A DNA stretch of 64,000 nt from an uncultured Syntrophomonas sp. (GTDB taxonomy: Bacteria; Bacillota; Syntrophomonadia; Syntrophomonadales; Syntrophomonadaceae), in NCBI GenBank assembly GCA_964501655.1, contig CAZCTN010000006.1:29206-93205 (forward strand), in the 5' to 3' direction. The translations under genes and the position numbers were made by a program. Each line of letters starts with the position of its first letter. Position 1 is the first letter of the stretch. Shown one piece after another: positions 1 through 18,922 of the stretch. The notes beneath the pieces are model-generated. The model was given only the letters and a program-made list of their open reading frames with translations, was not told the DNA's origin and ran no database searches.

Positions 1-3000
1 TTTTTAACTCGCCATTCTCGGTAGTACGGGTTTCTCTTACGGCTTTGCGATCCGAGCTTAGATCATTGCTTTGTTTGATAATGGTATCGGCATCTTTTTT
101 ATATTCGATGGATTTGACCAAGTTGTAACTATAATCATAGCTGTATTTTGCTTCGTATTCGCTGTTGGGATAGCCGGACGCCAGGGGGCTGGTATAGGTA
201 AGTACATTCCCTTTGGAATCATATGTGTACTGCTGGCTGACTAGTTTTCCCATATTGCTATTGCTTCCATAGGTTTGAGTGGTTATTTTTTTTGGCAGTT
301 CAGTAGTAGTATACTCATACTGTATGGTTTTTCTGGTTTTGTTATTCTCGCTTACCGTCTCAGTCTTTTTTAAATGGGTTTGATAATCAAATTTATAACT
401 GCTTTTAGTCCCGAGAGCATTGGTTACGGTGGTGCTATAGTCACTGGTAGCATTCAGAAAACTGGCGCTATAGGTGTAGGTATCATTCAGGTAGATTTGT
501 TTGCCGTCTTTTTTATACATGCTTTTGATGCGGTAGTAGGTGGCGATACCGCCGTTAACGCTTTCATATTCGTTGGTGCAAACTAGTCCGGTGGGGTAGG
601 TTACTCTGATAAGGTTCTGGTAGTTCCGGGTTTGACCATCGTAGGTTCCGTTTGCGTTCTGGTAGGCATAGGTGGTCACCCGGCCCATTTGGTCTTCTTT
701 TTTTATTAAGTTCCCGCTGGTATTTAAGTTGAGGGCAATTACAGATTTATCGGGCAGGATGATGTTGTAAAAGTTGGCCGCTAGTTCGCAGTTGCATAAT
801 ATTCGGGTGGTCTGCCCGGCGCTGTCTACTATAGTTACTTCTTTATTATCGCCTATAGTTTTTTTACTGAAGGTTATGCGGTTGTCAAAGCGGTCGGTTA
901 TAGAGCTTATGTTTCCATCAGAGTCGAAGCTTTCTTTGCGCCCGTCGGCATAGGTCAGGGCGGTTACTTTGCTGGAGGATACAGTTACTTGTATATCACT
1001 TAGTTTGTAGCCTCCTAATTTGTAGATTTGATTCTCGTATACCAATGGATAGGTAGAACCATCGGTTAAGCGTATGTATTTTCCGTCTGTTCTATATAGT
1101 ATGCGGGTAAAATTTAATGACCACCCTCTCCCCAGGTATTTCTGAGGCCATTTGGCTTTTTGGTCGTTTCCGCTATAGGTTTCGGCCGAGTTGTAGACCA
1201 GCACCAGGTTAAGATCCAGGCCGTTTTTCCCAGGCATACTGGCCAGGGTTTCTTCGTATAGCAGGGCTCCGCTGTTAAGGTTTACGGTTTCATTTATGCC
1301 TGCCCGGTAGCCAAAGGGAGCACTTGGGTAGGGCTCTACCGCATCTTCATCTGTTGTCAAAGCTTTCAGTTCGTCTTCAAAATATATGTTCAGCTCTTCT
1401 TTTTTCTCTTGGATTAGCTCTTCGATTTCCTGAACCGTTTTTCCTGTGGTTTTCATGTATTTTATAATGGCTTCTTCATTCAAGTTGTAGCTTATAGCCA
1501 GGGCATGAATTAATTGCTGTTCTTGCGAACTATAATCTGCAAGATCATCGCTGCTGCTGTCTTTGGCAATTATACTGCTTATTTCCAAGCCCAAGGCCTG
1601 GGATGCTATGTAGGCATTTACAATGTTTCGAGCGGGGTAGCCTTTTTGAATGAGTTCTATGATAATGGCTTTATCTTTACTCAGGGTTTCAAATCTCAAT
1701 AAGTAGTCAGCAAGCAATTCCGCCTGCTCGGCTGCGGTTTTTTCGCTGGCAAAGACTAATCCCATTGCTTTAGCTTCTTCTAAAGTCAAGTTTAGGCTTT
1801 GCATGATTTTGGCTTTATATATGCTTTGTTTTAAGGTTAAGCCGGCCTCTTCACAAATCAGCAGGGCCGGTTCGGTTAGTTTTAAATGAAAGTAGAGCAG
1901 TTTTTTTTCATCTTCGTTTAGCTCCGAATATTTATTTTTGGTATTTAGCAGTTCTATTACTTCCTGGGGCAGGTAGGCAAAGTCTTCTTCCGGATTATCT
2001 ATTATCTCGTTATCTATGTTTTCCAATAAAGGAGTTATCGCTAATAAGCCATTTGCTATTTTGTTTACCAGGGTGTCTGCCTGGCTGGCGTTTTCTTTTA
2101 GGGCGAGGGCTATTCCTGTCGCGGTTGCATCTGGTTTTAGTCCTTTATATATTGCTGCTGAGGCTGTTGCATAGGCGGCTGCTAATGAGGTTCCGCTTCC
2201 ATAAGTATAGCTATTACCGGGACTGGTGCTGTATATGTTTTCACCGGGGGCTGCTATATGCACGTGGCTGCCGTAGCTGGATGTGGCGGCTAGTTCTCCT
2301 TGCTGGTTCATTGATGCTACCGAAATTATATTAGGCAGCTGATACGCAGCCGGATATATTTTACTGTCATCACCGGTATTCCCGGCAGCGCATATGAAGA
2401 GTATATTAGGGTTTTGCTCAATGGCGTCTTTGAGAGCCTGATTGTATTCGGGGCTTCCCCAGCTGCAGTTGATGATCGATATACCTTTGCTCCTGGCATA
2501 TTCTATAGCAGCTATGGCATCAGAGGTGTATCCGCTTCCGTTTTCTATAAATTTTAAGGGCATTATCCGGGCTTTTGTGGCTAGCCCCGCTATACCTTCG
2601 CCATCATGATTGGCACCTATTATTCCGGCTATTTGGGTTCCGTGAAACGAATCTCCTTCATCGAATACGCTGTCGTCTTCATTGTAAAAATCCCATCCGT
2701 TTACGATTCTGCCGGCTAGTTCGCTATGGCTGACATCGATTCCGGTATCTATTACCCCTACGGTTACAGGTTCCATGGCATCTATGATAGCCCACTTATC
2801 GCCTATGTTTAGGTCATAGGGCTGGTCTTCTGCTTGTTCCCCGGTACCACCTAATGCCCATTGCTGGTCAAGGTCCGGTTCCGAGGAGGGGTCCATGCTT
2901 TCCAACTGGTAATTGAACTGAACATATTCTACTTTCGGGTCTTTTTCCAGTTGTTCTTTGACTTCTGTGATATTTATATTTGAACCTACAGTTATTTCTG

Positions 3001-3355
3001 CTAGTTTTAACGCTTCATGTTCTTGTTTGACGCTTAGTCTGTTATCTAGCTTTTCCGGTTCCTTTACTGAGTGTTTCTCGGCCAGATCGCTATTTGCATT
3101 TTCTATGATTGTTTCTGCTATTTCAAGGTTTTTGTATTTTATTATTAACTGTGGTTTTTCTACCTTTGGTCGGTCACCCTCTTTATCTTGTTGGAGGTTA
3201 TCTTTGCTTTTTTGTTCTATACTATTTCCCTGGTCTACTGTTTCTACGGCGTATGTTTTAACCACATTTACTGGCAATGTGGTTAGAATCATCAATGTCA
3301 TCAATAGAACCGTTATACTTTTCCTCATTGCCCGTTTAATTCCCCGCATGTTCAT
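1..3355 (-). CDS. Secreted subtilisin-like (S8) serine peptidase fused to an RHS/YD-repeat protein; the 3' end runs off the left window edge
   Basis: Absent from the ORF track because it has no stop in the window. My manual minus-strand translation from ATG 3355 (GGAGAAGGAGA immediately upstream) stays open to position 1. Signal peptide MNMRGIKRAMRKSITVLLMTLMILTTLPVNVVKTYA. S8 triad motifs VGVIDTGID, SFHGTQIAG, GSGTSLAAAY. A helical linker follows, then an RHS-type entry LNSGALLYEETLASMPGKNGLDLNLVLVYNS and YD repeats (FDSDGNISSITDRFDNRITF, YTYDSKGNVLTYT). Confidence 0.8.
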   Translation of the reverse strand, partial: MNMRGIKRAMRKSITVLLMTLMILTTLPVNVVKTYAVETVDQGNSIEQKSKDNLQQDKEGDRPKVEKPQLIIKYKNLEIAETIIENANSDLAEKHSVKEPEKLDNRLSVKQEHEALKLAEITVGSNINITEVKEQLEKDPKVEYVQFNYQLESMDPSSEPDLDQQWALGGTGEQAEDQPYDLNIGDKWAIIDAMEPVTVGVIDTGIDVSHSELAGRIVNGWDFYNEDDSVFDEGDSFHGTQIAGIIGANHDGEGIAGLATKARIMPLKFIENGSGYTSDAIAAIEYARSKGISIINCSWGSPEYNQALKDAIEQNPNILFICAAGNTGDDSKIYPAAYQLPNIISVASMNQQGELAATSSYGSHVHIAAPGENIYSTSPGNSYTYGSGTSLAAAYATASAAIYKGLKPDATATGIALALKENASQADTLVNKIANGLLAITPLLENIDNEIIDNPEEDFAYLPQEVIELLNTKNKYSELNEDEKKLLYFHLKLTEPALLICEEAGLTLKQSIYKAKIMQSLNLTLEEAKAMGLVFASEKTAAEQAELLADYLLRFETLSKDKAIIIELIQKGYPARNIVNAYIASQALGLEISSIIAKDSSSDDLADYSSQEQQLIHALAISYNLNEEAIIKYMKTTGKTVQEIEELIQEKKEELNIYFEDELKALTTDEDAVEPYPSAPFGYRAGINETVNLNSGALLYEETLASMPGKNGLDLNLVLVYNSAETYSGNDQKAKWPQKYLGRGWSLNFTRILYRTDGKYIRLTDGSTYPLVYENQIYKLGGYKLSDIQVTVSSSKVTALTYADGRKESFDSDGNISSITDRFDNRITFSKKTIGDNKEVTIVDSAGQTTRILCNCELAANFYNIILPDKSVIALNLNTSGNLIKKEDQMGRVTTYAYQNANGTYDGQTRNYQNLIRVTYPTGLVCTNEYESVNGGIATYYRIKSMYKKDGKQIYLNDTYTYSASFLNATSDYSTTVTNALGTKSSYKFDYQTHLKKTETVSENNKTRKTIQYEYTTTELPKKITTQTYGSNSNMGKLVSQQYTYDSKGNVLTYTSPLASGYPNSEYEAKYSYDYSYNLVKSIEYKKDADTIIKQSNDLSSDRKAVRETRTTENGELK

Positions 3356-4758
3356 TCTCCTTCTCCTATGTTTTTCCGGTTATAATTCTTAGCCATCAAG
3401 TTGGACATTTGTTAAGGGTGTTAGACTTGTCATTCTATTTCAAATTGAATAATAGTAGTGCCGGTTGTTAAGGGTTTAAATTTGATGATGGTTAGAACTC
3501 CGGTCCAGGCTTTATCGGTATAACTGCTCTTATCTACTTTAAATCGTATGACTCCATTCTTATGACTGAGGATTTCTATCCCGGTTCCAGCTATTACTCC
3601 AGGTTGGGTGTCCTCTCCCCATGTCTGCGCTGCCAGGTCTGTTATTTGTATTTCTTCAGGGTTATATTTTAGGACATAGATCTTCCCCAGGTTATGGGGC
3701 ATATCACTAACATTAAGGCTCAGTATCTGGCTGTTATCTTGAACAATGGTCAGATTTTTTTCGGCTGCGCTTGCCCCCAGCAAAAATTCTTCTATAGTAC
3801 AATTGCTAACCTGCGCTTCTCCAGCCAACTGGCCTATTATTTTTCCACTTTCTGTTGTTCCGCTGATATTCTTAACGCCGGTTATGCTGCAGTTTTGTGC
3901 AGCCCCCCCATTCATATAGCCGATTAATGCTCCTACATTAGTGCTTCCGGTGATATCTACTTTATTCAGTTTTAAATCCTGGATTATTGCTTGATTGGTG
4001 TAGCCAAACAATCCTACATTGTCTGTTGTAGGCAGGTTTATCAGCAGGTTATTGATACTGTGACCATTGCCGTTAAAATTCCCTGTAAAGGGTGTTGTTG
4101 ATGTCCCTAGGGGCTGCAGGGATTGGTTTTGCAAATCTATATCCCGCTCCAAACGATAGCAGGCGCTCAGGTTTTGAGCTACAGCTAACAAATCGTTTGT
4201 GGTGTAGATCAGAATAGGATCTTCAAGGGTTCCGGCAGCTGCTGCCGGGACGCTGCTGCTAACAGTTAGTTGCGTGGACCAAGCGCTGGCAAAAGTTCCT
4301 ATTCGGCTTCTTACCCTGAAGTTATATTCTGTTTGAGGCATGAGTTGCTCTATCAGGCAGGTATGGCTATCGCTGGTAAATATCTCATTCTGAAAATCGA
4401 TCTCATAGGTTTCTGCCCCGGCTTGTGGATCCCAGGTCAGTTCTATGCAGGTTGCTGTCACCAATGATGCTGTTAGATTGCTTGGCGCCAATTGGGTATC
4501 GCTTAAGGTTGTAACGGTGATGGGCTCACTCCAGGGGCTTTTCATATTGTAGTTACGGGCTCGTATAATAAACTCATAGGTAGTATCAGGCTGCAATTCA
4601 TTGATTACAATTTCTGCTGTGTCAGAAGCAGCGATTTTGTCATTGTAACTGACTTCATATGCTTCTGCTGTTGCTTGATTATTCCAGGTTAATTTGACTG
4701 ATACCGGGGTAATATATTCTGCTGTTAACTGGATTGGCGCAACTAGATATATGGGTTG

Positions 4759-7191
4759 GCTTATCCCCTCTACATCTCTCAGATAGGGATAAGATCCGCT
4801 TTCTATGCCCCAGGTATTTATGAAGTCCCAGTTTTCATAGGTCGTTTCGGTCTTTAACTGGCTGCTGGTCTTGGCTTGTTCGACCGGGGTGCTTACTCCT
4901 GCTTTATCTAAATCAAAATAGCTGCTCACCATGCTTACCGTACTTGGTGCTATTCCATTTTTACTGCCGTTTCCACTTAGCTGACACAGGCTGTAGCTGT
5001 TAGTGATTTCCCTGCTTCCGCTGGTAGCGCTATATCCGATTATCCCACCTGCATAACTGCTTGCTAGTATTACTCCTGATGCAAAGCTGTTTTCTACTGC
5101 TAAAGCTCCGGTCGAAGAATTATACCCAATCAATCCCCCGGCTTGAGTACAACTGCTAGACCCAATTTCGCAATCGGCATAGCTGCTTTCTATTACGGTA
5201 CTTCCGGCTCCGCCTACACTTCCTACTAAACCGCCGGCATACCTCCCACTGCTTTTACCTACAGTTCCACTGGCGCAGCTGTTGCTTATCCTGCTTTCCT
5301 CGCTGGTGCTGCTGCTTATGGAGCCGATTAACCCCCCAGCATAATTACTACTGCTACTGTTTATGGTTCCCCGGGATTTACTCCCAGTTATCTCTCCTCC
5401 CAGGGTATTACGTCCTATTAAACCGCCTGCATAATTACCGCCATATACTTCCGCTGCCGCACTACTGTCTGCTATGTCTCCGCCTTTGTTAGATCCAACC
5501 AGGCCGCCTGCTGTTGATCCCGACACTATCCCGCTGCTGATATGGCAGTTTTCTACTCTCCCGCCTTCCATTTCTCCTATGAGACTGCCTATACAGCTGC
5601 CTCCCCTAACGTCTATATTCTCTACTCGTAAATTCTTTATTACCGCGTTGTTGCAACTGCCAAATAATCCTACATTGCCTGTCCCATTAACGCTTACGTT
5701 CTTTATCACATGATCTCTGCCATCAAAGCTGCCGCCGAATGGCACCGTCCCGGTTAAGGGCTCTATGGCTGCCATTTCTAAGTCTATATCGTTTATCATG
5801 GCAAAGTGTTTGCCCGGATTATTCTTTACTCCCAGCAATTGTTCTTTGTTCTCGATTATATATGGATCAGCTTCTGTTCCTGCTCCCTCATACTGTTCTT
5901 TGCCTATCTTGACTTGTTCCGGATTGTCCACTTCTCTTAAATATGAATAGGTAGCTCCTTCTTCTATATCCCAGATGTTTTCATAATCAAAGCCGTTTAC
6001 TTTCTTTATCAGCAGTTCCTTTTGGCTGGCATTATAGCAGGATGTTATATTGCTGCTGCTTAAGCTTCCTCCGCTAAGTACTCCTACGTTAAGATTCCCT
6101 TTTACTTCTCCTACGGTGTAGCTGGTCTTGAGGGTGCTGTCAATTCCTACCTGTCCTACTAAACCTCCTACATAGTTGTTTCCAGTTATGTTCCCCAGTG
6201 CAAAGCTGTTCTCTATATTTACTGTTTTGCTACTATGTCCTACTATACCCCCGGTATACTGGCTGGTTAATCCGTTGCTTTCTATATTCCCGGCAGCATA
6301 GCTCTGGGTAATCGTGGTAACTGACCCGCTTGTATCTCCTATTAGGCCCCCTGCTTTTCCTGCATCGCTTACCACCTTGCCGGTGACAAAACTTCTGGTT
6401 ATTGTGCCACTAAAATACCCGGCCAAGCCCCCGACAATATTTTCTCCTTCTACATCTATGCTGCTGCTGCTTCCTTCAATACCGTTACTCCCATATCCTA
6501 CTATTCCCCCTACATTATTCTTGCCTTTGATTAAGCCTGCCGCCGTAACTTGGCTGTTTATTACCGCGCCGCTGCTATTATATCCGACTAAACCTCCTAC
6601 ATACTGGCTGCTGCTGTTTATGTAGGCTTTGCCTTTTACTTCGCACCCTTCTATGCTTCCGCGCTATTCTCCTATCATTCCTCCTACTCTAATAGCTGAA
6701 TTAGAATTGGTCTCTATACTCAAGTCTCCGTTTACCTGGTTGTTCTTTACCGTACTGCTGTTACTGCGTCCTATCATCCCGCCTATGTATGATGTACCGC
6801 TGCTGGTATCGCTTTTTATTACTATGTTTCCTTCTACCGCGCAGTCTTCTACCTGCCCGTTGTTTATGTAGCCTATCAGTCCGCCTGCATTGCTCATTTT
6901 CCCTTCGCTGATATTCACATTCTCTATCGTTATGTTCTTTAATACGGCTCCATCTCCATAAGCAAATAATCCGGCATAGCTCTGGTTCTTTATGCTTAAA
7001 TTCTTTATCTTATGGCCATCCCCGTCCAAACTCCCTTTGAAGGCATTATTGTTTTCGCCTACCGGCTGCCAGTGCTGGTTCTCCAAGTCTATGTCGCTTC
7101 CTAATCTGTAATGGGCAGTTAAATTGTTCCTTATCCCTTGTAACTGCTCGGCGTTCTCTATTATATATGGGGCTTCTATGGTCCCCTGTCC
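4759..7191. repeat. Tandem duplication, copy 1 (2,433 bp)
   Basis: Matches 7207..9639 wherever I compared the printed lines. All ORF-track entries inside it recur at +2448 with identical translations (5474/7922, 5765/8213, 6314/8762, 6629/9077). Confidence 0.9.
6664..6666 (-). other. In-frame amber codon 2 (same position in the second repeat copy, 2,448 nt downstream)
   Basis: 9112 minus 2448 = 6664; identical context. Confidence 0.9.
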
Positions 7192-7206
7192 GGCTGGCGT
7201 CGTACC

Positions 7207-9639
7207 GCTTATCCCCTCTACATCTCTCAGATAGGGATAAGATCCGCTTTCTATGCCCCAGGTATTTATGAAGTCCCAGTTTTCATAGGTCGTTTCGGTC
7301 TTTAACTGGCTGCTGGTCTTGGCTTGTTCGACCGGGGTGCTTACTCCTGCTTTATCTAAATCAAAATAGCTGCTCACCATGCTTACCGTACTTGGTGCTA
7401 TTCCATTTTTACTGCCGTTTCCACTTAGCTGACACAGGCTGTAGCTGTTAGTGATTTCCCTGCTTCCGCTGGTAGCGCTATATCCGATTATCCCACCTGC
7501 ATAACTGCTTGCTAGTATTACTCCTGATGCAAAGCTGTTTTCTACTGCTAAAGCTCCGGTCGAAGAATTATACCCAATCAATCCCCCGGCTTGAGTACAA
7601 CTGCTAGACCCAATTTCGCAATCGGCATAGCTGCTTTCTATTACGGTACTTCCGGCTCCGCCTACACTTCCTACTAAACCGCCGGCATACCTCCCACTGC
7701 TTTTACCTACAGTTCCACTGGCGCAGCTGTTGCTTATCCTGCTTTCCTCGCTGGTGCTGCTGCTTATGGAGCCGATTAACCCCCCAGCATAATTACTACT
7801 GCTACTGTTTATGGTTCCCCGGGATTTACTCCCAGTTATCTCTCCTCCCAGGGTATTACGTCCTATTAAACCGCCTGCATAATTACCGCCATATACTTCC
7901 GCTGCCGCACTACTGTCTGCTATGTCTCCGCCTTTGTTAGATCCAACCAGGCCGCCTGCTGTTGATCCCGACACTATCCCGCTGCTGATATGGCAGTTTT
8001 CTACTCTCCCGCCTTCCATTTCTCCTATGAGACTGCCTATACAGCTGCCTCCCCTAACGTCTATATTCTCTACTCGTAAATTCTTTATTACCGCGTTGTT
8101 GCAACTGCCAAATAATCCTACATTGCCTGTCCCATTAACGCTTACGTTCTTTATCACATGATCTCTGCCATCAAAGCTGCCGCCGAATGGCACCGTCCCG
8201 GTTAAGGGCTCTATGGCTGCCATTTCTAAGTCTATATCGTTTATCATGGCAAAGTGTTTGCCCGGATTATTCTTTACTCCCAGCAATTGTTCTTTGTTCT
8301 CGATTATATATGGATCAGCTTCTGTTCCTGCTCCCTCATACTGTTCTTTGCCTATCTTGACTTGTTCCGGATTGTCCACTTCTCTTAAATATGAATAGGT
8401 AGCTCCTTCTTCTATATCCCAGATGTTTTCATAATCAAAGCCGTTTACTTTCTTTATCAGCAGTTCCTTTTGGCTGGCATTATAGCAGGATGTTATATTG
8501 CTGCTGCTTAAGCTTCCTCCGCTAAGTACTCCTACGTTAAGATTCCCTTTTACTTCTCCTACGGTGTAGCTGGTCTTGAGGGTGCTGTCAATTCCTACCT
8601 GTCCTACTAAACCTCCTACATAGTTGTTTCCAGTTATGTTCCCCAGTGCAAAGCTGTTCTCTATATTTACTGTTTTGCTACTATGTCCTACTATACCCCC
8701 GGTATACTGGCTGGTTAATCCGTTGCTTTCTATATTCCCGGCAGCATAGCTCTGGGTAATCGTGGTAACTGACCCGCTTGTATCTCCTATTAGGCCCCCT
8801 GCTTTTCCTGCATCGCTTACCACCTTGCCGGTGACAAAACTTCTGGTTATTGTGCCACTAAAATACCCGGCCAAGCCCCCGACAATATTTTCTCCTTCTA
8901 CATCTATGCTGCTGCTGCTTCCTTCAATACCGTTACTCCCATATCCTACTATTCCCCCTACATTATTCTTGCCTTTGATTAAGCCTGCCGCCGTAACTTG
9001 GCTGTTTATTACCGCGCCGCTGCTATTATATCCGACTAAACCTCCTACATACTGGCTGCTGCTGTTTATGTAGGCTTTGCCTTTTACTTCGCACCCTTCT
9101 ATGCTTCCGCGCTATTCTCCTATCATTCCTCCTACTCTAATAGCTGAATTAGAATTGGTCTCTATACTCAAGTCTCCGTTTACCTGGTTGTTCTTTACCG
9201 TACTGCTGTTACTGCGTCCTATCATCCCGCCTATGTATGATGTACCGCTGCTGGTATCGCTTTTTATTACTATGTTTCCTTCTACCGCGCAGTCTTCTAC
9301 CTGCCCGTTGTTTATGTAGCCTATCAGTCCGCCTGCATTGCTCATTTTCCCTTCGCTGATATTCACATTCTCTATCGTTATGTTCTTTAATACGGCTCCA
9401 TCTCCATAAGCAAATAATCCGGCATAGCTCTGGTTCTTTATGCTTAAATTCTTTATCTTATGGCCATCCCCGTCCAAACTCCCTTTGAAGGCATTATTGT
9501 TTTCGCCTACCGGCTGCCAGTGCTGGTTCTCCAAGTCTATGTCGCTTCCTAATCTGTAATGGGCAGTTAAATTGTTCCTTATCCCTTGTAACTGCTCGGC
9601 GTTCTCTATTATATATGGGGCTTCTATGGTCCCCTGTCC
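7207..9639. repeat. Tandem duplication, copy 2 (2,433 bp); period 2,448 bp = 816 codons
   Basis: See copy 1. The copies are joined by a unique 15-nt junction 7192..7206 (ggctggcgtcgtacc), which encodes GTTPA on the minus strand. Confidence 0.9.
9112..9114 (-). other. In-frame amber codon 1 (context GGMIGE-TAG-RGSIEGC, followed by C)
   Basis: cta at 9112..9114 on the plus strand; flanking codons read directly. Confidence 0.9.
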
Positions 9640-9732
9640 CATGCCAGGATAGGTCTGAGCATATGCCAAGCTGGCACTGCCGCTTATTATTAGTAACATA
9701 ATATTGATAATGGCCATAACTTTTTTTAGCAT
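9112..9732 (-). CDS. Only segment of the surface-protein gene with a real start: signal peptide plus first beta-helix module (206 aa), ending at the in-frame TAG
   Basis: ATG at 9732 preceded by AAAGGAAGAG; typical Sec signal ending AYA-Q; stop TAG at 9112..9114. Confidence 0.7.
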   Translation of the reverse strand: MLKKVMAIINIMLLIISGSASLAYAQTYPGMGQGTIEAPYIIENAEQLQGIRNNLTAHYRLGSDIDLENQHWQPVGENNNAFKGSLDGDGHKIKNLSIKNQSYAGLFAYGDGAVLKNITIENVNISEGKMSNAGGLIGYINNGQVEDCAVEGNIVIKSDTSSGTSYIGGMIGRSNSSTVKNNQVNGDLSIETNSNSAIRVGGMIGE

Positions 9733-9868
9733 TTCGTTCTCTTCCTTTCACTGCCAGATAAATAATAAATAAGCAATCATGTTGATATGTACCAATTTAT
9801 ATTATACTTGTTCTTTATGTTATATTTTGTTATTATATGGTAGTTTTTGACATAATAAAAATAATTTA

Positions 9869-10215
9869 TCTGGATTGGGTGAGCACTTGACTCCTTGATT
9901 GCCACCGAAATTAGGAATTCACCAGTTCAAGAAAGCCAAACAGCTGGCAGCGTATTACGGTGTTGATCCCTCCGTCAGACATTAAGGCAACTTCACCCGG
10001 AACGCTCAACAAGGTAACCAAGGGAGGGTCACCTTATCCTCGCAGAGCACTATACATAGCTGCCACTGTTGCCATTAGGAAAGCGTCAAATGGAAGTTTG
10101 GTTACCCAGTTCTCTATGATTATTATTAAGAAAAAACGAAGAGTAAGGCCAAGAAACAGGCATTAGGCGCTGCGATGAACAAATTCTTGAAATACCAGAA
10201 GCCCTTTATTCTTAA
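9869..10215 (+). mobile_element. Decayed C-terminal fragment of an IS110-family transposase (Transposase_20-like region), with frameshifts and stops and no N-terminal part
   Basis: Piecing frames together gives ...LIATEIRN..FKKAKQLAAYYGVDPSVRH*GNFTGTLNKVTKGGSPYPRRALYIAATVAIRK...PVLYDYY*EK..KAKKQALGAAMNKFLK. This matches the conserved IS110 C-terminal pattern (AKQLAAYxGLxPs..qSG....isKrGs..LRraLy.aA). Hairpins lie downstream at about 10205..10240 and 10284..10299. Confidence 0.6.
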
Positions 10216-10341
10216 AGAACAAAGGGCTCGATTCAATCAAAAATTAGCGTTTGTAGCTTAAGAACCTCGATTTACTATACGGACTTCGCTAATGCGAAGA
10301 TAGCTGTTTGCAACTATTATTCGTATTCTGGGTAGTACTAA

Positions 10342-10378: not shown

Positions 10379-11797
10379 TCACATGAATATCTGGATAGCG
10401 TACCCGGCTAGTTGGGATAAGGGGCCGGGGTAGACTCCCAGGAGGATGGTAGCCAGTACGCACACCCATAGTGCGACAGTGCTGCCCCATCCCAGAGACA
10501 CTGGTGCTTGATCCGAGTTTTCCCCGATGTACATGGCTTTGGAAACTCCCAGGTAATAGTAAACCGAGACCATGCTCATCACCAGACCCAAGAGGGCCAG
10601 CCAGAGATAGCCGGCTTCTATGGCTCCGGCAAACAAGTAGAACTTGCCCGCGAAGCCTGCCATGGGCGGAATTCCGGCCAGGGACAGCATGCATATGGTC
10701 ATTATAGCGGCCAGCAGGGGCGAACGTTTGCTCAAACCGGCAAAGGCCTCGATATCAGTTCGTCCGGTATCTGCTTCCACCGCGGCAGCCACAGCAAATG
10801 CACCCACATTGGCAAAAACATATATCATGGCATAAAACAATACTCCTTTCAAACCATATGAGTTGGCGGCAGCCAGCCCTACCAGAATATATCCGGCTTG
10901 GGCAATGCTGGAGTATGCCAAGAGTCTCTTAATATCCTGCTGGGAAAGGGCTATAAGGTTTCCGATAATAATGGTCAGAGCAGCCAGGACCGCCAGGAGC
11001 AGGCTCCAGTTGAATACTGAACCCTGGTCTGCTGCGGCCATGAATACCCGCAGAAGGGCGGCAAAACCTGCCGCTTTGGAAGCCACCGAAAGATAGGTGG
11101 TAACCGGAATGGGCGCTCCCTGGTAAATGTCCGGGGTCCACATGTGGAAAGGCACTACCGAAACCTTGAAGGCGAAACCGGCGATTATCATCGCCATTCC
11201 AGCTATGACAGCCGCCGATGAAGTAAAGGACGCTCCTATGTCTATAAAATTGGTGCTTCCCAGGCTGGCATAGATCAGGCTGATGCCAAAGAGGAGGATA
11301 GCTGAAGATATGGCACCCAGGATCAGGTATTTTAATCCGGCTTCACCCGAAAGCTTATCAGTCTTCAGATAAGCGGTCAGAATATAGAAACTTATGGTCA
11401 TCAGCTCCAGACCCAAATAAAGGGTGATGAATTCCCCGGCTGAAACCATAAGCATCATGCCCAGGGTGGCAAATATCATCAGACCGTAAAATTCATTGCT
11501 TTTCTCTTCAAACCGGCTGATATACCGTCCCGCCATTAGCATGACCAGGATGCCGGCACTGAGGAATAATATCTTGAAATAATTGCCATACAAGTCAATC
11601 TGGTAAACCCCGTTGAACAAACCGGCTTCCCGGGAATAGCTCAGGGCTAAATAAAGCAGCACCAGGCTCAACCCGGATACAGACAGGCCATTGACATACT
11701 TCCCTGCCTTTTGGGGCAGGGCCAGACCCAGGATCAACACCGCCAACCCTAGCAGGGCCATCAGGATTTCAGCTGCCAGTATCGAAAAATCCATCAT
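10379..11797 (-). CDS. nuoN: NADH-quinone oxidoreductase subunit N
   Basis: Polytopic antiporter-like protein at the last position of the nuo operon. ATG 11797 lies 6 nt after GGAGG and overlaps the nuoM stop. Confidence 0.85.
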   Translation of the reverse strand: MMDFSILAAEILMALLGLAVLILGLALPQKAGKYVNGLSVSGLSLVLLYLALSYSREAGLFNGVYQIDLYGNYFKILFLSAGILVMLMAGRYISRFEEKSNEFYGLMIFATLGMMLMVSAGEFITLYLGLELMTISFYILTAYLKTDKLSGEAGLKYLILGAISSAILLFGISLIYASLGSTNFIDIGASFTSSAAVIAGMAMIIAGFAFKVSVVPFHMWTPDIYQGAPIPVTTYLSVASKAAGFAALLRVFMAAADQGSVFNWSLLLAVLAALTIIIGNLIALSQQDIKRLLAYSSIAQAGYILVGLAAANSYGLKGVLFYAMIYVFANVGAFAVAAAVEADTGRTDIEAFAGLSKRSPLLAAIMTICMLSLAGIPPMAGFAGKFYLFAGAIEAGYLWLALLGLVMSMVSVYYYLGVSKAMYIGENSDQAPVSLGWGSTVALWVCVLATILLGVYPGPLSQLAGYAIQIFM

Positions 11798-13302
11798 AAC
11801 CAACCTCCTATCTGCAGCAGTCCAATCTGCGCTGCCAGTGCTCCTACCCCATTATTGATCAGATCCATCAGGGTAAAGGGGAGGAAACCTCCCAGGAATA
11901 TTGCCGATCCCAGTACTACCAGGGGCACCATCTCCACACCTTTTAGATCCTGGAGATGATCCCACTTCTCATTACGGGGACCAAACAACATCCTGCCCAG
12001 GGCTCGCAGAACATAAAGGGCGGTGAAAACGATTCCTGATATGGCCAGGATGGTTATTACTCTATAGGTACCGAAAGCTCCTACAAATATGGTAAACTCG
12101 CCAATAAAATTCACCATGCCCGGCAAGCCCAAGGAAGCCAAACCGGCAATCATAAAGCCTGCAGTGAGTTTCGGCATCTGATGAGCCAGTCCTCCGAAAT
12201 CTTCGATATTGCGGGTGTGGCTCTTTTCATACAGGTTGCCGATCATGGCAAAGAAGAGGGCCGCCATCACCCCGTGGGCGAACATCATGATAACCGCGCC
12301 ATTCAAGCTGATTAAATTCAAGGCCGCGATTCCTACCAGCACATAGCCCATGTGGCTTACACTGGAGTAACCCACTATGTACTTCAAATCCTTCTGGCTT
12401 AAACAGATATAGGCGGCATATACAATATTTCCAACCGCAAGCACCGCGATAATAGGGGCTACAATTGCTGCCCCAACCGGCAGAATAGTAATCGCTATGC
12501 GGATTAAGCCGTATCCCCCGATTTTCTTCAGCACCCCGGCGTGGATCATGCTCACCGCAGTGGGCGCTCCGGCATAACCATCCGGCGACCAGGCGTGAAA
12601 GGGGAACATGGATAACAAGGTGCCAAAACCAAAGGCCATAAAGGCAAATACCAGAATTTGAAATTCCACCCCATAGTCCAGGGTGGCCAGGAAGGCCATA
12701 TCCATACTGGCAATGCCGCTGATCGCTTGTGCCTGCACAAAAAGAGCTATTAAGCCGGTTAGTAAAAAGGCGCTGCCTATCAACAGATAAATGGTAAGTT
12801 TCATGCCAGCGTACTCCTTGCTGACCCGTTTGGTACTGCCAAACATAATTACCAGCAGATAAATGGGTATAACTACCACCTCATAGAACAGGAAGAAAAT
12901 AAACAGATCGGTAGTAATAAAGGTTCCCATTACCCCGGCTATCAGTATTAACAGCAGAGCAAAGAATTCCTTGACCCGCTCGGCCAGGTTCCAGGAAGCA
13001 TATACGGAACTGAATCCAATCAGATTAGTCAATAGCAGCATGGGGATACTTATCCCGTCTACTCCCAGGGCATAGTTGACTCCCAGGTCTTTGATCCAGG
13101 GTATGGTTTCTACAAACTGCATACCCCCAGCTGCCCGGTCATAAGCCAGGAATACCGCTATAGACAGCAGCAAGCTGATCAGGGTGGCGAATGCTGCCGT
13201 CCACTTTATCCCTTTATGCTGTTGGGCAGGCAGGCCCATAATAAGCATGGCTCCCAGCAAAGGTATCACCAGGGTTATAGTTAATACCGGTATTTCGTTC
13301 AT
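11794..13302 (-). CDS. nuoM: NADH-quinone oxidoreductase subunit M
   Basis: 502-aa antiporter-like subunit; operon position between L and N. Confidence 0.85.
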   Translation of the reverse strand: MNEIPVLTITLVIPLLGAMLIMGLPAQQHKGIKWTAAFATLISLLLSIAVFLAYDRAAGGMQFVETIPWIKDLGVNYALGVDGISIPMLLLTNLIGFSSVYASWNLAERVKEFFALLLILIAGVMGTFITTDLFIFFLFYEVVVIPIYLLVIMFGSTKRVSKEYAGMKLTIYLLIGSAFLLTGLIALFVQAQAISGIASMDMAFLATLDYGVEFQILVFAFMAFGFGTLLSMFPFHAWSPDGYAGAPTAVSMIHAGVLKKIGGYGLIRIAITILPVGAAIVAPIIAVLAVGNIVYAAYICLSQKDLKYIVGYSSVSHMGYVLVGIAALNLISLNGAVIMMFAHGVMAALFFAMIGNLYEKSHTRNIEDFGGLAHQMPKLTAGFMIAGLASLGLPGMVNFIGEFTIFVGAFGTYRVITILAISGIVFTALYVLRALGRMLFGPRNEKWDHLQDLKGVEMVPLVVLGSAIFLGGFLPFTLMDLINNGVGALAAQIGLLQIGGWL

Positions 13303-13319
13303 TTACTACCTACCCCCTT

Positions 13320-15209
13320 TCATAATACTGCGGACTCTACGGCTATGGCTCCCAGCACTACCAGGATTAATACCCCGGCCATCATGTACATGGCATAGCT
13401 CTGAACCTGTCCATCTTCGGTGTATTTTAAGCTGTCCCCGCTTTTCCCGGTTAGATATGCAATGCCGTTAACAAACCCGTTAACTATATGGATATCGATC
13501 CAGAACATAACCCGGGCTCCCCCGTAAACCAGTATCTCACCCAGGCGGGTATATATTTCATCGATATAGTATTTATTCTGCACCAGGGTATAGAGTCCAG
13601 AAAATTTCTGGCGCAGGGCTTCATGGCTGATAACATTTTTCTGGTAGATCAACCAGGCCAGTAAGATTCCGGCCCCGGCGATAAGGGAAGATGATACCAT
13701 TATACCGATACTGGGATGAGGGTGGATGCCCAGAGGACTGTTAACATATTCCCCGAACACATGATGCATAAGGGGCGAGTTAACGAAACCAACCAGGACG
13801 GCTGCCACCGCCAGTATTACCAGCGGAACAGTAATTACTCCTCTGTTCTCGTGGGCTTTTTCCTGCCCATAGGTATTACTGCCATAGAAGGCGGTGAATA
13901 TCAGGCGGAACATGTAAAAAGCGGTCATAAAGGCCACCACTACTCCCAGCACATATAATCCTATGTGACCGCTAGAGTAGGCGGCCAGGAGGATCTCGTC
14001 CTTACTCCAAAATCCGGACAGGGGGGGTATCCCGGAGAGGGCCAGGGCTCCGATAATAAAAGTCCAGGTGGTTATCGGCATTTTCCGGGATAGATTGCCC
14101 ATTTTCCAGATGTTCTGTTCCTCGTGCATGGCATGTATCACACTGCCCGCGCCCAGGAATAACAGGCTCTTAAAGAAGGCATGGGTCATTAAATGGAACA
14201 TTCCGGCGGTCATAGCTCCTATGCCCATAGCCATCATCATATAACCCAACTGGCTCAAGGTTGAATAGGCCAGTATTCTTTTTATATCATTCTGAGTAAT
14301 AGCTATGGTGGCGGCAAACAGGGCGGTAAAGCCGCCTACTACGGCTATTACGGTCATAGCCTGGGGTACGCTGGCAAATATGAAGAAGGCCCTGGCCACC
14401 AGGTACACCCCGGCAGCTACCATGGTGGCAGCATGAATCAATGCGCTGACTGGGGTGGGTCCTTCCATGGCATCCGGCAGCCACCCGTGCAGGGGGAACT
14501 GGGCTGATTTGCCCATGGGGCCGAAGAACAACAGTATGGCAACCGGAATCAGCACTGCGACATTCTGATATCCAGGTATTACATGGGCCAGAGCGGTAAA
14601 GCTAAGAGTACCGAATATTATCTGCAAAAAGAGTATCCCCAGCAAGAACCCAAAGTCTCCTACCCGGTTGGTTATAAAGGCTTTGATGGCGGCATTCTTG
14701 GCCGAGTCCAGCCCAAACCAGAAGCCGATCAGGAAGTAGGAACAAATTCCCACCAGTTCCCAGAACACAAACATCTGTCCAAAGTTGTTGGCCATTACCA
14801 GTCCCAGCATGGAGGCGGCAAACAGGCTTTGATAGCCGTAATAACTGGCGAAACCTGGATCACCTTCCATGTAGCCCAGGGAGTAAATCTGCACCAGGGT
14901 GGCAATAGAGGTTACTACCAGCAGCATTACCGCTGTCAGCGGGTCCAGCAGCAGCCCCATATCTACCTGCAAACCAGGCATCTGCAGCCAGCGCATCGAG
15001 TACTCAAATACTGCTCCCCCGGGTTCTGCAAATACTGCCGACGCCAGTGGAATAGAAAATATACAGGCCGCAGCAATACTGAGTATGGATAAACCTGCTG
15101 ATATACCGGGCCAGCGGTGCACGAATAAGAAGATCAATGCGGCGGCCAGAAAAGGCAAGAAGGCTATCAGCCAGGCGTTGGGCAAAATAAATTCATACAT
15201 ATTCATCAC
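13320..15209 (-). CDS. nuoL: NADH-quinone oxidoreductase subunit L
   Basis: 629-aa antiporter-like subunit with the long C-terminal extension typical of NuoL. Confidence 0.85.
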   Translation of the reverse strand: MMNMYEFILPNAWLIAFLPFLAAALIFLFVHRWPGISAGLSILSIAAACIFSIPLASAVFAEPGGAVFEYSMRWLQMPGLQVDMGLLLDPLTAVMLLVVTSIATLVQIYSLGYMEGDPGFASYYGYQSLFAASMLGLVMANNFGQMFVFWELVGICSYFLIGFWFGLDSAKNAAIKAFITNRVGDFGFLLGILFLQIIFGTLSFTALAHVIPGYQNVAVLIPVAILLFFGPMGKSAQFPLHGWLPDAMEGPTPVSALIHAATMVAAGVYLVARAFFIFASVPQAMTVIAVVGGFTALFAATIAITQNDIKRILAYSTLSQLGYMMMAMGIGAMTAGMFHLMTHAFFKSLLFLGAGSVIHAMHEEQNIWKMGNLSRKMPITTWTFIIGALALSGIPPLSGFWSKDEILLAAYSSGHIGLYVLGVVVAFMTAFYMFRLIFTAFYGSNTYGQEKAHENRGVITVPLVILAVAAVLVGFVNSPLMHHVFGEYVNSPLGIHPHPSIGIMVSSSLIAGAGILLAWLIYQKNVISHEALRQKFSGLYTLVQNKYYIDEIYTRLGEILVYGGARVMFWIDIHIVNGFVNGIAYLTGKSGDSLKYTEDGQVQSYAMYMMAGVLILVVLGAIAVESAVL

Positions 15210-15210
15210 C

Positions 15211-15519
15211 TCACCACTTCAACAGATTAAAATCGTGCAGATCCACTGATCCGCGCTGCCGGTAAATGGATATGACCAGAGCCAGGCCCACGGCTATTTC
15301 GGCAGCGGCTACCACGATAACGAAAACGGAAAACAATTGACCTACTGCGCTGTCGGGGGCAATATACTTGTTGGCGGCTACAAAATTAATGTTAACCGCA
15401 TTCAGCATCAGTTCCACTGACATCAACACCGCTACCGCATTGCGCCGGGTCAAAACTCCAAAAATCCCTATGCAAAATATAATAGTACCCAATAATAAAT
15501 AATGGGGTAATCCGATCAC
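15211..15519 (-). CDS. nuoK: NADH-quinone oxidoreductase subunit K
   Basis: 102 aa, three TM helices; operon position. Confidence 0.85.
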
Positions 15520-16043
15520 TTGTTTTCAACCCCCTTAGCCAGAATAATGGCCCCTACCACTGCTACCAGCAGCAATATGGCCGCCGCCTCAAAAGCTATC
15601 ACATAGTCCCCCAGCATCAACTCGGCCAGCAGGCCCGGAGAGTTGTCCGGACCTGGCCGCCCGGTCAGCGGCCAGCTGGTAAACCCCATAACTGCCATCA
15701 AGGCGGTCAGCATCATGGCAGTTATTGTGCCGCCGATAAAAACTTCCCGGGTTCTGGGACTGCTAAGGTTGGTCTCTCCCGCCGCCCGGTTCATTACCAG
15801 CATGATGGCAAATATGATTAAAACCGATATGGCTCCGGCATATACCAGGATCTGTATTACTCCCAGGAAGCCAGCATTCAGTTGGAAGTAGACGGCTGCT
15901 GCCCCCAGAAATGCCAGGATCAGGCTCAAGGCGCTGTAAATAATATTTCTGAACAAGACCACCCCCAGGGCGGCGGTAATGGTTATTCCGGCGATAACTA
16001 TGAATACTGCATCAAATAATGTGACGGAGGCCAGATTAAGCAT
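15516..16043 (-). CDS. nuoJ: NADH-quinone oxidoreductase subunit J
   Basis: Start moved to ATG 16043 (GGAGGAA 7 nt upstream, ATGCTTAA overlap with the nuoI stop). The track start at 16106 would add a charged non-membrane leader. Confidence 0.8.
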
Positions 16044-16725
16044 CTGTGTTTCCTCCTTCCTGGTCACTCTCTTCTCTGGCCCGGTTTTTCTTTTCTTTGT
16101 TAACAAAACCGCTGGCCACCTTAACTGCTTTTTCCTTATCTTTAACCATAAGTTCAGCCATCTTTGCGGCTGTTTTCTGGTCCGACTGTATCAACTCAGC
16201 CAGAATATTGATATCCTCCTCCGCTTTCAGCAGCTTTGACAGCACTTTCTGCGGACTCTTCTCCAGCGCTTTTAACATGGCTGCAATCTGCTTCTGCTCT
16301 TTATCTTCCTGCTCAGCCGATCCTTCCTCCGCCTCATCCAGTCCTTCAGGTCTCTGGTAGATCATTTTAATGTCTTCCCGGCTAAAGCGGGATAGTTCAA
16401 ATTCATGATCAAAGTGCAGGCAGGAAGTAGGACAGCCTTCCACACACAGGTTGCAGAACATACAGTATTGGAAATCTATAGTGTAGTTTAAGAGTTTTTT
16501 CTTCTTACCTTTTTCATTCTTATCAGTTTCAAAGGACAGCACATCATTGGGGCAGTTGTTGACGCAAATCCCGCAGGCTATACATTTTTCGAACTGAAAA
16601 CGCAGGCAGCCCCTGAACCGGGGTGCCAGCCGGGGCATTACGTCGGGGTATTGCTCGGTTATCTCTTTCTGAAAAAAATGCTTAAAGGTAATACCCAGTC
16701 CTTTTATTAATCCCTGTCCATTCAT
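16036..16725 (-). CDS. nuoI: NADH-quinone oxidoreductase subunit I (2x[4Fe-4S] ferredoxin-type) with a C-terminal Lys/Glu-rich extension of about 100 aa
   Basis: Two CxxCxxCxxxCP motifs (CIACGICVNNCP, CMFCNLCVEGCP), then the tail DEAEEGSAEQEDKEQKQIAAMLKALEK...[13 protein letters not shown]. Confidence 0.85.
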   Translation of the reverse strand: MNGQGLIKGLGITFKHFFQKEITEQYPDVMPRLAPRFRGCLRFQFEKCIACGICVNNCPNDVLSFETDKNEKGKKKKLLNYTIDFQYCMFCNLCVEGCPTSCLHFDHEFELSRFSREDIKMIYQRPEGLDEAEEGSAEQEDKEQKQIAAMLKALEKSPQKVLSKLLKAEEDINILAELIQSDQKTAAKMAELMVKDKEKAVKVASGFVNKEKKNRAREESDQEGGNTDA

Positions 16726-16728
16726 TAC

Positions 16729-17769
16729 TTAACACCACCCCATCCATTGGCAAAAGTAGATCCCGGCCCCGGTAAGCAGTATATTGCCCAAGCTGACTGG
16801 AACCAGCACTTTCCAACTGAAGGACATCAGGTGGTCCATACGGATTCGGGGAAAGGTCCATTTTACCCAGAAGAATACCAGTATTATCCCGTAGGTCTTG
16901 ATAATAATCCATAGCCAGGAGGGCAGCCAGGGTCCCTGCCAGCCCCCCAGGAATACTGTGGCCATCAAGGCTGAAACGGCTACCAGATTGGTATATTCGG
17001 CCAGGAAGAACAAGGCCCAGCGCATACCGGTATATTCGGTATATGCTCCCCCGGTCAGCTCCTGCTCGGCTTCCGGCATGTCAAAGGGTCCCCGGTTCAA
17101 TTCAGCGGTTGCGGCAATAAAATAGGTTATGAAGGCTATGGGCTGCAGGATTATGAACCACAGCTTGTCCTGGGCTGCTACGATATCCTGCAGGTTTAAC
17201 GAGCCAGTGATCATAACTACTCCCAGCAGGGAAAAGGCCAGGGGTATTTCATAGCTTACCATCTGGGCTACTGATCGCACCGCCCCCATCAATGACCATT
17301 TGTTGTTTGAGCCCCAGCCCGCCATTAACAGAGCTATGGTGGCCAGAGAACCTATTGAAATAAAGAATAAAAGTCCGATGTTCAAGTTGACGACTTCCAT
17401 TCCTTCTCCCATAGGTATAACTGTATAGAGCATGACAGCTATGACGATAAATAACATGGGAGCGGTCTTGAAGATCAATTTGTCTGCTACTGAAGGAACA
17501 ATGTCCTCCTTGGTTAATAGCTTGATGGCATCGGCTATAGTCTGAAATATTCCGAACGGTCCCAGCCGATTGGGTCCCAGCCTCTCCTGGAAGAAGGCGC
17601 TGACTTTTCTTTCCAGCCAGATCAGAATAATAATATTAAGAGTGATAATAGTAATTACTATTATCCATTTAACTAGCAGCAATATGGCATCGGCCCAAGC
17701 CGGATCCAAGCCCAGACTTACTATCCAGCCGGTAAAAGCTGCCGCCAAGTTGATAAACAAAGGTTCCAT
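16729..17769 (-). CDS. nuoH: NADH-quinone oxidoreductase subunit H
   Basis: 346-aa polytopic protein with NuoH/ND1-like sequence (ERKVSAFFQERLGPNRLGPFGIFQ). Confidence 0.9.
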   Translation of the reverse strand: MEPLFINLAAAFTGWIVSLGLDPAWADAILLLVKWIIVITIITLNIIILIWLERKVSAFFQERLGPNRLGPFGIFQTIADAIKLLTKEDIVPSVADKLIFKTAPMLFIVIAVMLYTVIPMGEGMEVVNLNIGLLFFISIGSLATIALLMAGWGSNNKWSLMGAVRSVAQMVSYEIPLAFSLLGVVMITGSLNLQDIVAAQDKLWFIILQPIAFITYFIAATAELNRGPFDMPEAEQELTGGAYTEYTGMRWALFFLAEYTNLVAVSALMATVFLGGWQGPWLPSWLWIIIKTYGIILVFFWVKWTFPRIRMDHLMSFSWKVLVPVSLGNILLTGAGIYFCQWMGWC

Positions 17770-17821
17770 ATACTATTCGCTCCTCTTGAGTGAAATTGGC
17801 CAATTAGCTTGACGCTGATTA

Positions 17822-18922
17822 TTATCTATCTGATTCCCCCAGTATCGGGTCCAGGGTAGCAATATTGGTTATGAGGTCCTGGAATACCCCGCCCCGACAT
17901 ACCAGGGGCAGTACCATCAGGTTAATAAAGGACGGAGCCCTCACATGCAGGCGATAGGGTTTACTGCTCCCATCACTGACCATATAGTAGCCCAACTCGC
18001 CTTTGGCTGACTCGATCCGATGATAGACTTCCTTGCCCGGATCGGGTTTTAATACCTTGGGGACCCGGGTGCTGATCTCTCCCTCCGGCATCCCCTCCAG
18101 GGCTTGTTCGATTATCCGGCCGCTCTGCCTGATTTCTTCGATCCTAACCTGCCACCGGTCCAGGGAATCTCCCCGGTCCCCGGTGGGAATATCAAATTCA
18201 AAGCGAGGATAAATCCCATAGGGGTCAGCTTTACGCAAGTCATAGGATATTCCGCTGGCTCTCAAATTGGGTCCGGTGACTCCATAATTGATGGCGTCTT
18301 GAGGATCAAGGATGCCGACTCCCTGCATGCGGGCGGCCCATATTTCGTTCCCGGTCATAAGACCATTGTATTCGTCAATCATTAAGGGGATATCCTTAAC
18401 CAGGCTCTTAACCGCCGGGATGAATCCTTCCGGGATATCATCCGCCACTCCTCCTATCCTGATGTAGGATGACAGTAAGCGCTGTCCGCCAGTCATTTCG
18501 AAAATATTCATAATCCGCTCCCGGTCCCGCATCCCGTACATCAAGGCGGTAGTAGCCCCCAGGTCTATCCCGGTAGCGGCGATGGCGATTTGGTGGGAGG
18601 CAATCCGGGACAATTCAGCCATGATAACGCGTATATATTCAGCTCGTTCAGGCACCTGGATACTCAGGAGTTTTTCCACACTCTGGCAATAACCCAGAAC
18701 CGGCAGATTGGTAGCCAGGTAGTCCAGCCGTGCAGTATAGGGCACAAATTGCTGATAAGTTTTACCTTCAGCTATCTTCTCTACGCTTCTATGTACATAA
18801 CCCAGATGAACGATAACATCCTGGATTATCTCTCCATCCATGAAGGCTTCCGCATGCAGGCCTCCATGGGTGCTGGGATGGATGGGCCCGACGTTGACCG
18901 TATATTGATCAGTCTGAAACAC
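17822..18922 (-). CDS. nuoD: NADH-quinone oxidoreductase subunit D
   Basis: 366 aa with NuoD/49-kDa-like sequence (GPIHPSTHG..., LDPILGESDR at the C-terminus). GTG start overlaps the nuoC stop. Confidence 0.9.
   Translation of the reverse strand: MFQTDQYTVNVGPIHPSTHGGLHAEAFMDGEIIQDVIVHLGYVHRSVEKIAEGKTYQQFVPYTARLDYLATNLPVLGYCQSVEKLLSIQVPERAEYIRVIMAELSRIASHQIAIAATGIDLGATTALMYGMRDRERIMNIFEMTGGQRLLSSYIRIGGVADDIPEGFIPAVKSLVKDIPLMIDEYNGLMTGNEIWAARMQGVGILDPQDAINYGVTGPNLRASGISYDLRKADPYGIYPRFEFDIPTGDRGDSLDRWQVRIEEIRQSGRIIEQALEGMPEGEISTRVPKVLKPDPGKEVYHRIESAKGELGYYMVSDGSSKPYRLHVRAPSFINLMVLPLVCRGGVFQDLITNIATLDPILGESDR

Follow-up and report, generated by a model that had tools for sequence, protein, structure and literature searches.

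Tandem duplications that form by illegitimate, RecA-independent joining at short junctions are known from studies on Salmonella and Escherichia coli, and once they are formed they are unstable because of RecA-dependent recombination. Variation in the number of tandem domains within single genes has been described for the Periscope Proteins, a group of variable-length surface proteins that includes Rib/alpha C, SasG/Aap, Esp, and Sgo_0707 (Whelan et al., 2021; PMC8201768). Here, we analyze an intragenic tandem duplication in a 64,000-nt stretch of DNA from an uncultured Syntrophomonas sp. (contig CAZCTN010000006.1), which is referred to as the window and to whose positions all coordinates refer unless another contig is named. 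The duplication lies within a gene on the minus strand (3430–9732; 2,100 codons with two in-frame TAGs in the two-copy allele) that encodes a putatively secreted multi-module protein with GLUG motifs and beta-helices, in the following called the GLUG gene. We think it rather probable that the locus represents a very young head-to-tail segmental duplication, which is polymorphic in the strain, resides in a gene that is interrupted by a nonsense mutation, and is probably neutral.

A 2.4-kb Unit Is Repeated Exactly and Parted by a 15-nt Joint

In order to define the geometry of the repeat, the segments 4759–7191 and 7207–9639 were aligned exactly, and all of the 2433 bases were found to be the same, with 0 mismatches in 2,433 positions. 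Thus, the original prediction, which had been made from the letters of this stretch and had called the two segments identical, held when it was checked. Identity at an offset of 2448 sets in and ends precisely at the borders of the two segments, and the repeat period of 2,448 nt equals 816 codons, so that the duplication is in frame. An exact repeat of 2.4 kb cannot have arisen by chance. With the gene being read from the minus strand, the promoter-proximal copy 1 of the unit corresponds to 7207–9639 (codons 32–842) and copy 2 to 4759–7191 (codons 848–1658).

The two copies are separated by a joint of 15 nt at 7192–7206, which reads GGCTGGCGTCGTACC on the plus strand and GGTACGACGCCAGCC on the minus strand. 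The latter consists of the codons GGT, ACG, ACG, CCA, and GCC and translates to G-T-T-P-A (codons 843–847), whereby the frame on the minus strand continues across the joint as ...YPYLRDVEGIS-GTTPA-GQGTIEAPY.... This filler had been suggested to occur nowhere else, which was borne out for the window: no second site of the 15-mer was found at up to two mismatches, and no stretch of 10 nt or more is in common with the rest of the window on either strand. The joint sequence is also missing from the one-copy alleles L001, L003, L005, and L006 and from the sister strain contig L012, which are described below. The guanine–cytosine (GC) content of the filler is 73%, compared to 45% for the gene, and its codons are rare ones, with GGT making up 7% of the Gly codons of the gene and ACG, which is used twice, 8% of the Thr codons; the gene's rarest Gly codon and its rarest Thr codon are thus both found in the filler. 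GTTPA is merely what GC-rich DNA encodes. Its likeness to the natural linkers between modules, which had been pointed out before, proved superficial, as the conserved G-T-x-E-x-P-Y belongs to the start of the unit itself. Judged by its composition and codons, the filler looks like non-native DNA and not like an evolved linker.

One-Copy and Two-Copy Alleles Coexist Within One Strain

Related loci were obtained by exact-protein look-ups in public assemblies, whereby all allele states and counts given here are those of assembled contigs. Protein-pattern scans of genome and metagenome contig collections and an exact 30-mer scan of metagenome contigs yielded no match. For the Tex protein, the identity to proteins from metagenome-assembled genomes, including those of Syntrophomonadaceae, is 75–80%, and that to proteins of the Desulfotomaculum group is about 63%; the strain is an uncultured member of the Bacillota with relatedness to Syntrophomonadaceae and Desulfotomaculia. 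A single copy of the unit is present in JGI 3300033173 on a 118-kb contig (L001/L007/L010), in JGI 3300034686 (L003/L008/L011), and in nine ENA contigs assembled with MEGAHIT (k141), namely L005, L006, and seven similar ones. Apart from the single unit and the missing joint, L001, L003, and L005–L008 agree with the window at 100% identity over 16–19 kb. Two copies are present in JGI 3300033170 on a 93.9-kb contig (L002; 93,889 bp), which is identical to the window. An open reading frame (ORF) of 736 aa that spans the joint was found on three contigs of different lengths, one from NCBI (120,013 bp) and two from JGI, of which the first has 127,286 bp and the other was taken as the 93,889-bp record of L002; for the 120,013-bp and the 127,286-bp contigs the two-copy status is given by this joint-spanning ORF. 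ORFs of 206 aa and 998 aa were found on 16–17 contigs. Among the assemblies the one-copy allele is commoner than the two-copy allele, a point that the original prediction did not mention.

Two further assemblies break at the unit. Contig L004 from JGI 3300033175 begins at base 7191, which is the first base of the unit, and the Logan contig L013 (SRR10872584) extends into the unit by exactly 30 nt (k-1) and stops there. In Logan assemblies, for which k=31 is used, every 31-mer is stored once (PMC12424806). The stop of L013 at k-1 is explained by a branch at which the unit has two alternative predecessors. The JGI samples 3300033170 and 3300033175 are listed as anaerobic-digester samples from Wageningen (PMC10159854).

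The joint recurs and an assembler cannot invent it; therefore, the units do occur in tandem in real DNA. The duplication is genuine, the strain is polymorphic for it, and the comparison with related genomes that had been proposed in search of copy-number alleles revealed both the one-copy and the two-copy state on DNA that is 100% identical. How many copies there are exactly (two or more) and in which fraction of the cells depends on the assembler. When an assembler traverses a loop, two is the minimal number of copies it reports and the real copy number could be higher, and long unbroken MEGAHIT contigs would imply that the joint is absent or of low relative coverage in the respective samples. 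Four causes had been offered for the zero divergence between the copies. Two of them, a very recent event and a copy-number-variable locus, are borne out by the presence of both alleles on identical DNA. An assembly artefact, by contrast, is contradicted by the joint in at least three contigs and by the two assemblies that break at the unit boundary, and gene conversion is unlikely in view of the one-copy sister strain, the identity that extends to the unit edges, and the rare codons of the filler.

The Repeated Unit Comprises Two Complete Beta-Helix Modules

In order to relate the repeat to the protein, we analyzed the domain composition of the gene product. The two-copy allele is laid out as signal peptide, module A, module B, GTTPA, module A, module B, two FN3 domains, a short module C, and a C-terminal beta domain, whereas the one-copy allele comprises 1,284 codons. 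Internal module alignment revealed that the repeated unit equals modules A and B exactly, with A covering codons ~32–467 and B codons 468–842. From the alignment of modules A, B, and C, module A is located at ~9639–8332 and module B at ~8331–7207 in copy 1, and at ~7191–5884 and ~5883–4759, respectively, in copy 2. Modules A and B share only ~37% identity with each other. The earlier description of an in-frame duplication of a complete beta-helix block, including an amber codon, is therefore correct, the unit being modules A plus B. The protein starts with a signal-peptide-like N-terminus (9658–9732, minus strand; codons 1–25), which reads MLKKVMAIINIMLLIISGSASLAYA and is followed by Q after a putative cleavage site that is suggested by an AxA motif. 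The non-duplicated 3′ part (3430–4758, minus strand) contains the two FN3 domains, the truncated module C, the C-terminal beta domain, and a TGA stop, as assigned from fn3 and M26_N matches.

The Pfam search yielded matches to Glug (PF07581; E=1.8e-25, 88 bits at a cut-off of 20.5), Peptidase_M26_N (PF05342; 47 bits at a cut-off of 27.7), and fn3 (PF00041; two domains). A motif scan of the protein detected neither HExxH nor LPXTG, and there was no match to the M26 catalytic domain in Pfam. An identity as IgA1-specific M26 metalloprotease was considered and rejected: as the M26 catalytic domain and the HExxH motif are both absent, the GLUG protein is not an IgA protease. The AlphaFold2 (AF2) model of the joint-spanning 736-residue ORF has a mean predicted local distance difference test (pLDDT) score of 88.3 and displays beta-helices. 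When this model was searched with Foldseek, 3n6z (E=3e-7) and 6xja (E=4e-5) were retrieved as the best PDB matches, and PL6 lyases were matched as well. The modules are thus predicted to have a right-handed beta-helix fold. In the model, the beta-helix modules are connected by linkers of low confidence; GTTPA (model residues 557–561) lies in a coil, and the 10-residue block to which it belongs has a pLDDT of 59, while the confidence of the natural A–B linker is comparably low. For the last 115–120 aa of the protein no match was found in Pfam. The only PDB sequence match of this C-terminal beta-rich domain (3433–3792, minus strand; ~120 residues) is 3l8q, a cohesin-bearing cellulosomal scaffoldin, with a non-significant E-value of 0.47; the domain may be a cohesin-like attachment module.

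The nearest homologues outside the strain's own clusters have only 31–38% identity. Typically, the homologues carry two to three tandem modules, and the identity between modules within one protein ranges from 34% to 86% (self-BLAST with masked windows). Several distant homologues (P0007, P0011, P0014, and P0015) contain module pairs with 82–86% protein identity. Module duplications of comparatively recent date thus recur in the GLUG family, and module duplication in general is its usual way of growth.

The Gene Is Interrupted by an Amber Codon That Is Absent From a Sister Strain

The reading frame contains a premature amber codon, TAG, at codon 207 (9112–9114, minus strand), which is located within a GLUG repeat of module A between GGMIGE and RGSIEGC. 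Translation of the frame places the duplicated second amber at codon 1023 (6664–6666, minus strand). The amber at codon 207 is present in all alleles of the window strain, one-copy as well as two-copy, and apart from it the 3.85-kb reading frame is intact. Elsewhere in the window, TAG ends AcpS and DctQ at their usual lengths. The AcpS gene (59747–60130, minus strand) ends with TAG and is abutted in the same frame by an NAD(P)H-hydrate repair gene (YjeF_N and Carb_kinase; 58196–59746), and the DctQ gene (25900–26469, plus strand) ends with TAG and is abutted in frame by DctM (26470–27780), so that read-through of AcpS or DctQ would give fusion proteins. Among the genes of the window, only the GLUG gene is interrupted by TAG, and tRNA genes were not detected in this stretch. 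Recoding of TAG, including its use for pyrrolysine, was rejected for the window, given the normal termination of AcpS and DctQ. TAG is an ordinary stop codon in the window; therefore, the GLUG product is nominally truncated after 206 residues.

In order to determine the direction of the changes, a sister strain from the Logan run SRR31227859 (L012; also L009) was used as an outgroup. The flanks of L012 differ from the window in 6 of 2,390 nt (0.25%), and its unit differs from that of the window in 80 of 2,433 nt, whereby the differences are grouped in three patches. Comparing L012 2391–4823 with window 7207–9639, these patches are 8–13% divergent and are located at unit nt ~283–560, 1701–2000, and 2301–2496; their codon changes comprise 29 synonymous and 36 non-synonymous ones. 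No intragenic donor was found for the patches. Intragenic conversion or mutagenesis of the diversity-generating retroelement (DGR) type was rejected as their source, since there is no such donor and no template-repeat-like copy in the window. It is more likely that the mosaic patches result from the import of a diverged allele by recombination.

L012 contains an uninterrupted ORF of 890 codons with CAG (Gln) at the position of the window's amber. The end of its unit runs directly into the FN3 flank, and there is no contig break at either boundary; thus, the sister strain has one copy. A single copy together with CAG suggests in turn that the ancestral state is one intact copy. On this sequence comparison, the TAG of the window is to be read as a derived C>T (CAG>TAG) nonsense mutation, of which the original prediction made no mention. 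Since no allele of the window strain is without the TAG, it is most parsimonious to assume that the nonsense mutation preceded the duplication. Conversely, the CAG (Gln) at 4591–4593 (minus strand) in the first FN3 domain of the window is a TAG in the sister strain, where position 23 of L009 is T compared to C at 4593. The presence of two independent inactivating TAGs in close strains suggests relaxed selection on the GLUG gene or selection for its loss. When the two independent TAG stops were evaluated for a TAG-specific tolerance, the result was not significant (p 0.09–0.24).

A Probably Neutral Duplication in an Interrupted Gene

We infer the order of events, the joining mechanism, the neutrality, and the instability of the locus from what is directly visible. 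This comprises the repeat with its joint, the allele that has a single copy on identical DNA, the sister allele, which has one copy and CAG, and the domain anatomy. The ancestral gene would have been intact, with one A+B unit. A C>T change would then have turned the Gln codon 207 from CAG to TAG, so that the 1,284-codon protein would stop after 206 residues. Later, in part of the population, codons 32–842 would have been duplicated in tandem. The two end points show neither homology nor microhomology, and the filler resembles neither flank; therefore, unequal crossing-over is excluded. This agrees with the earlier statement that the copies are not the product of simple unequal crossing-over; the lack of homology between the flanks and the absence of the filler from the one-copy allele speak in its favor. 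A larger duplication that was later remodelled by deletion was excluded as well, as the filler matches neither boundary flank. The joining would have been a single RecA-independent, non-homologous event, in which 15 nt of non-native filler were inserted. Two perfect direct repeats of 2.4 kb would subsequently serve as a substrate for homologous recombination, and the locus should switch among one, two, and possibly a higher number of copies, by which the different alleles across the samples would be explained. With translation already halting at codon 207, the duplication is most likely neutral with regard to selection.

Several points weigh against such a course of events. Both breakpoints are in codon phase 0 and lie in short inter-domain linkers, and unit plus filler are in frame. 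The 5′ breakpoint precedes the first conserved residue of module A by 2 residues, and the 3′ breakpoint follows the last conserved motif of module B by 5 residues. With ~5% of the residues in linkers, the chance of such a placement is ~1e-3, as a rough post-hoc estimate (0.05 × 0.05 × 1/3). The placement looks more like the outcome of selection on a translated product than like that of a neutral event; it could be a coincidence, it could be that the amber is leaky, or it might be that the duplication is older than the TAG, which then spread between the copies. Furthermore, a deletion from two copies to one is mechanistically far easier than the formation of a duplication, so that the polarity within the window strain rests on parsimony and a single outgroup. 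The ENA and JGI assemblies may come from overlapping read sets, and what is said here about loop traversal and pruning reflects the expected general behavior of assemblers.

It is against this background that the alternatives have to be weighed. The duplication might be an adaptive length variant, with the protein still being expressed, either because the amber is leaky or suppressed or because the TAG spread by recombination between the copies after the duplication had occurred in an intact CAG/CAG gene. Suppression could be due to a near-cognate tRNA-Gln or a suppressor tRNA, or to pyrrolysine machinery that is encoded elsewhere, and the module-precise in-frame expansion would have been kept by selection as a Periscope-like length switch with a unit of 816 residues. 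The position of the breakpoints in linkers speaks for this explanation, as does the in-frame joint, which is modelled as a flexible coil between confidently folded beta-helices. A multi-module architecture is moreover the norm in the family, in which module pairs of 34%–86% identity indicate that duplications were repeatedly fixed, and the 3.85-kb frame is intact but for the amber. However, TAG terminates ordinary genes of the window, the CAG of the sister strain makes the TAG a plain nonsense mutation, and the sister's own TAG at 4593 suggests a dispensable gene. The duplication has, in addition, doubled the ambers, no CAG allele was found among the assemblies of the window strain, the one-copy allele predominates, and the fact that both stops are TAG carries no significance, as stated above. 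All in all, we regard an adaptive variant as unlikely.

An old two-unit architecture that was homogenized by gene conversion or unequal exchange, with GTTPA as an evolved linker and the one-copy alleles as recent RecA-mediated deletions, would fit well with the frequency at which deletions occur between perfect 2.4-kb repeats, compared to the rare formation of duplications, and a homology that ends at the module borders would explain both the boundary placement and the frame. Such an origin is nevertheless quite improbable, since the sister strain has one copy across both boundaries and the amber must have reached both copies and every one-copy derivative. The identity is, moreover, perfect to the last base at the edges, which goes beyond what homogenization driven by crossovers would be expected to achieve, and the filler has a GC content of 73% and contains the rarest Gly and Thr codons. 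It might also be suspected that there is no two-copy cell at all and that the repeat was created in the assembly by a spurious loop walk or by chimeric reads. Short reads cannot resolve perfect repeats of 2.4 kb, most assemblies (MEGAHIT k141 and several from JGI) have one copy, and exactly two copies is what a minimal loop traversal gives. Nonetheless, we consider this highly improbable, because the 15 nt of the joint are novel sequence, which no assembler could invent, because the joint occurs in at least three contigs of different lengths and from different sources, and because the breaks in JGI 3300033175 and in Logan SRR10872584 lie at the first base of the unit and k-1 bases into it, respectively, as is expected from two alternative predecessors of the unit. 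Overall, a young, probably neutral duplication in a nonsense-interrupted gene is the explanation that we prefer.

Genomic Neighborhood of the GLUG Gene

The GLUG gene follows an 11-gene nuo operon and a terminator-like hairpin and is in turn followed by a giant RHS/YD-repeat gene. The hairpin (10199–10229, minus strand), which follows nuoN and was detected by a consensus scan only, has a 14-bp stem and sets the GLUG gene apart from the nuo operon, so that the GLUG gene probably has its own promoter within 9733–10198. The nuo operon (10379–19922; L010 1550–11419) comprises nuoA, B, C, D, H, I, J, K, L, M, and N, with nothing like nuoE/F/G between nuoD and nuoH. The RHS/YD-shell gene (1–3349, minus strand) is complete in L001 (13078–19779), where it encodes 2,233 residues with an N-terminal Peptidase_S8 domain ahead of the RHS/YD-shell repeats, and it is followed by a 201-aa ORF without a family match. 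Elsewhere in the window, two paralogous FAD_binding_2 flavoprotein genes (32119–33831 and 35490–37046, plus strand) with ~69% identity over 300 nt flank a gene for a PucR-type regulator (34107–35321). The Rfam search gave no match in the window.

Significance and Comparison With Known Systems

The locus provides a natural snapshot of how a multi-module beta-helix surface protein grows, as it combines zero divergence between the copies with the parental allele and with an outgroup that gives the direction. Given the module pairs of 34%–86% identity in the homologues, it would represent the time-zero end of a recurrent process of module duplication. It also calls for caution, in that assembler and sample both influence how long the GLUG gene turns out to be in a metagenome-assembled genome. 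Should the protein still be made, the module-precise, in-frame filler joint would be an example of the birth of a linker; under read-through or suppression, which we regard as unlikely, the birth of a new domain pair would have been caught in a living population, with random filler serving as the linker.

Regarding its fold and its Glug and M26_N matches, the GLUG protein resembles BACOVA_03286, a putative IgA1 protease (3n6z), and the N-terminal beta-helix of the IgA1 protease from Streptococcus pneumoniae (6xja). Unlike the IgA1 proteases, it has no M26 catalytic domain and no HExxH motif. With the Periscope Proteins (PMC8201768) it has in common that it is repetitive and probably secreted and that folded domains, identical at the DNA level, are arranged in tandem and vary in number between near-identical genomes, whereby intragenic recombination is the proposed driver. 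In contrast to these proteins, only one and two copies were found for the GLUG gene, and its unit consists of 816 residues (two modules) instead of a single domain of ~80–130 residues, which makes it ~6–10 times larger. Furthermore, the GLUG units are parted by a non-native joint, and while a full-length product is part of what defines a Periscope Protein, a premature stop, the TAG at codon 207, is present in every allele of the strain. Periscope Proteins are moreover marked by a secretion signal together with an anchor in the cell wall or membrane; the GLUG protein has a signal-peptide-like N-terminus but no LPXTG, and its C-terminal domain is without a Pfam match. The Periscope repeats build an elongated stalk on which a functional domain is held at the distal end, and the AF2 model of the GLUG protein shows beta-helix modules with low-confidence linkers between them.

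The event also resembles the short-junction duplications of Salmonella and E. coli. Like these, the GLUG duplication is a head-to-tail repeat with a novel join that is absent from the parental allele and without homology at its end points, the one-copy parental allele occurs in the same clone, and there is zero divergence between the copies. It differs from them in that its joint consists of 15 nt of untemplated-looking filler instead of 0–12 nt of microhomology, and in that the event is intragenic, in frame, and domain-precise. The duplication is an ordinary copy-number variant of an already known type.

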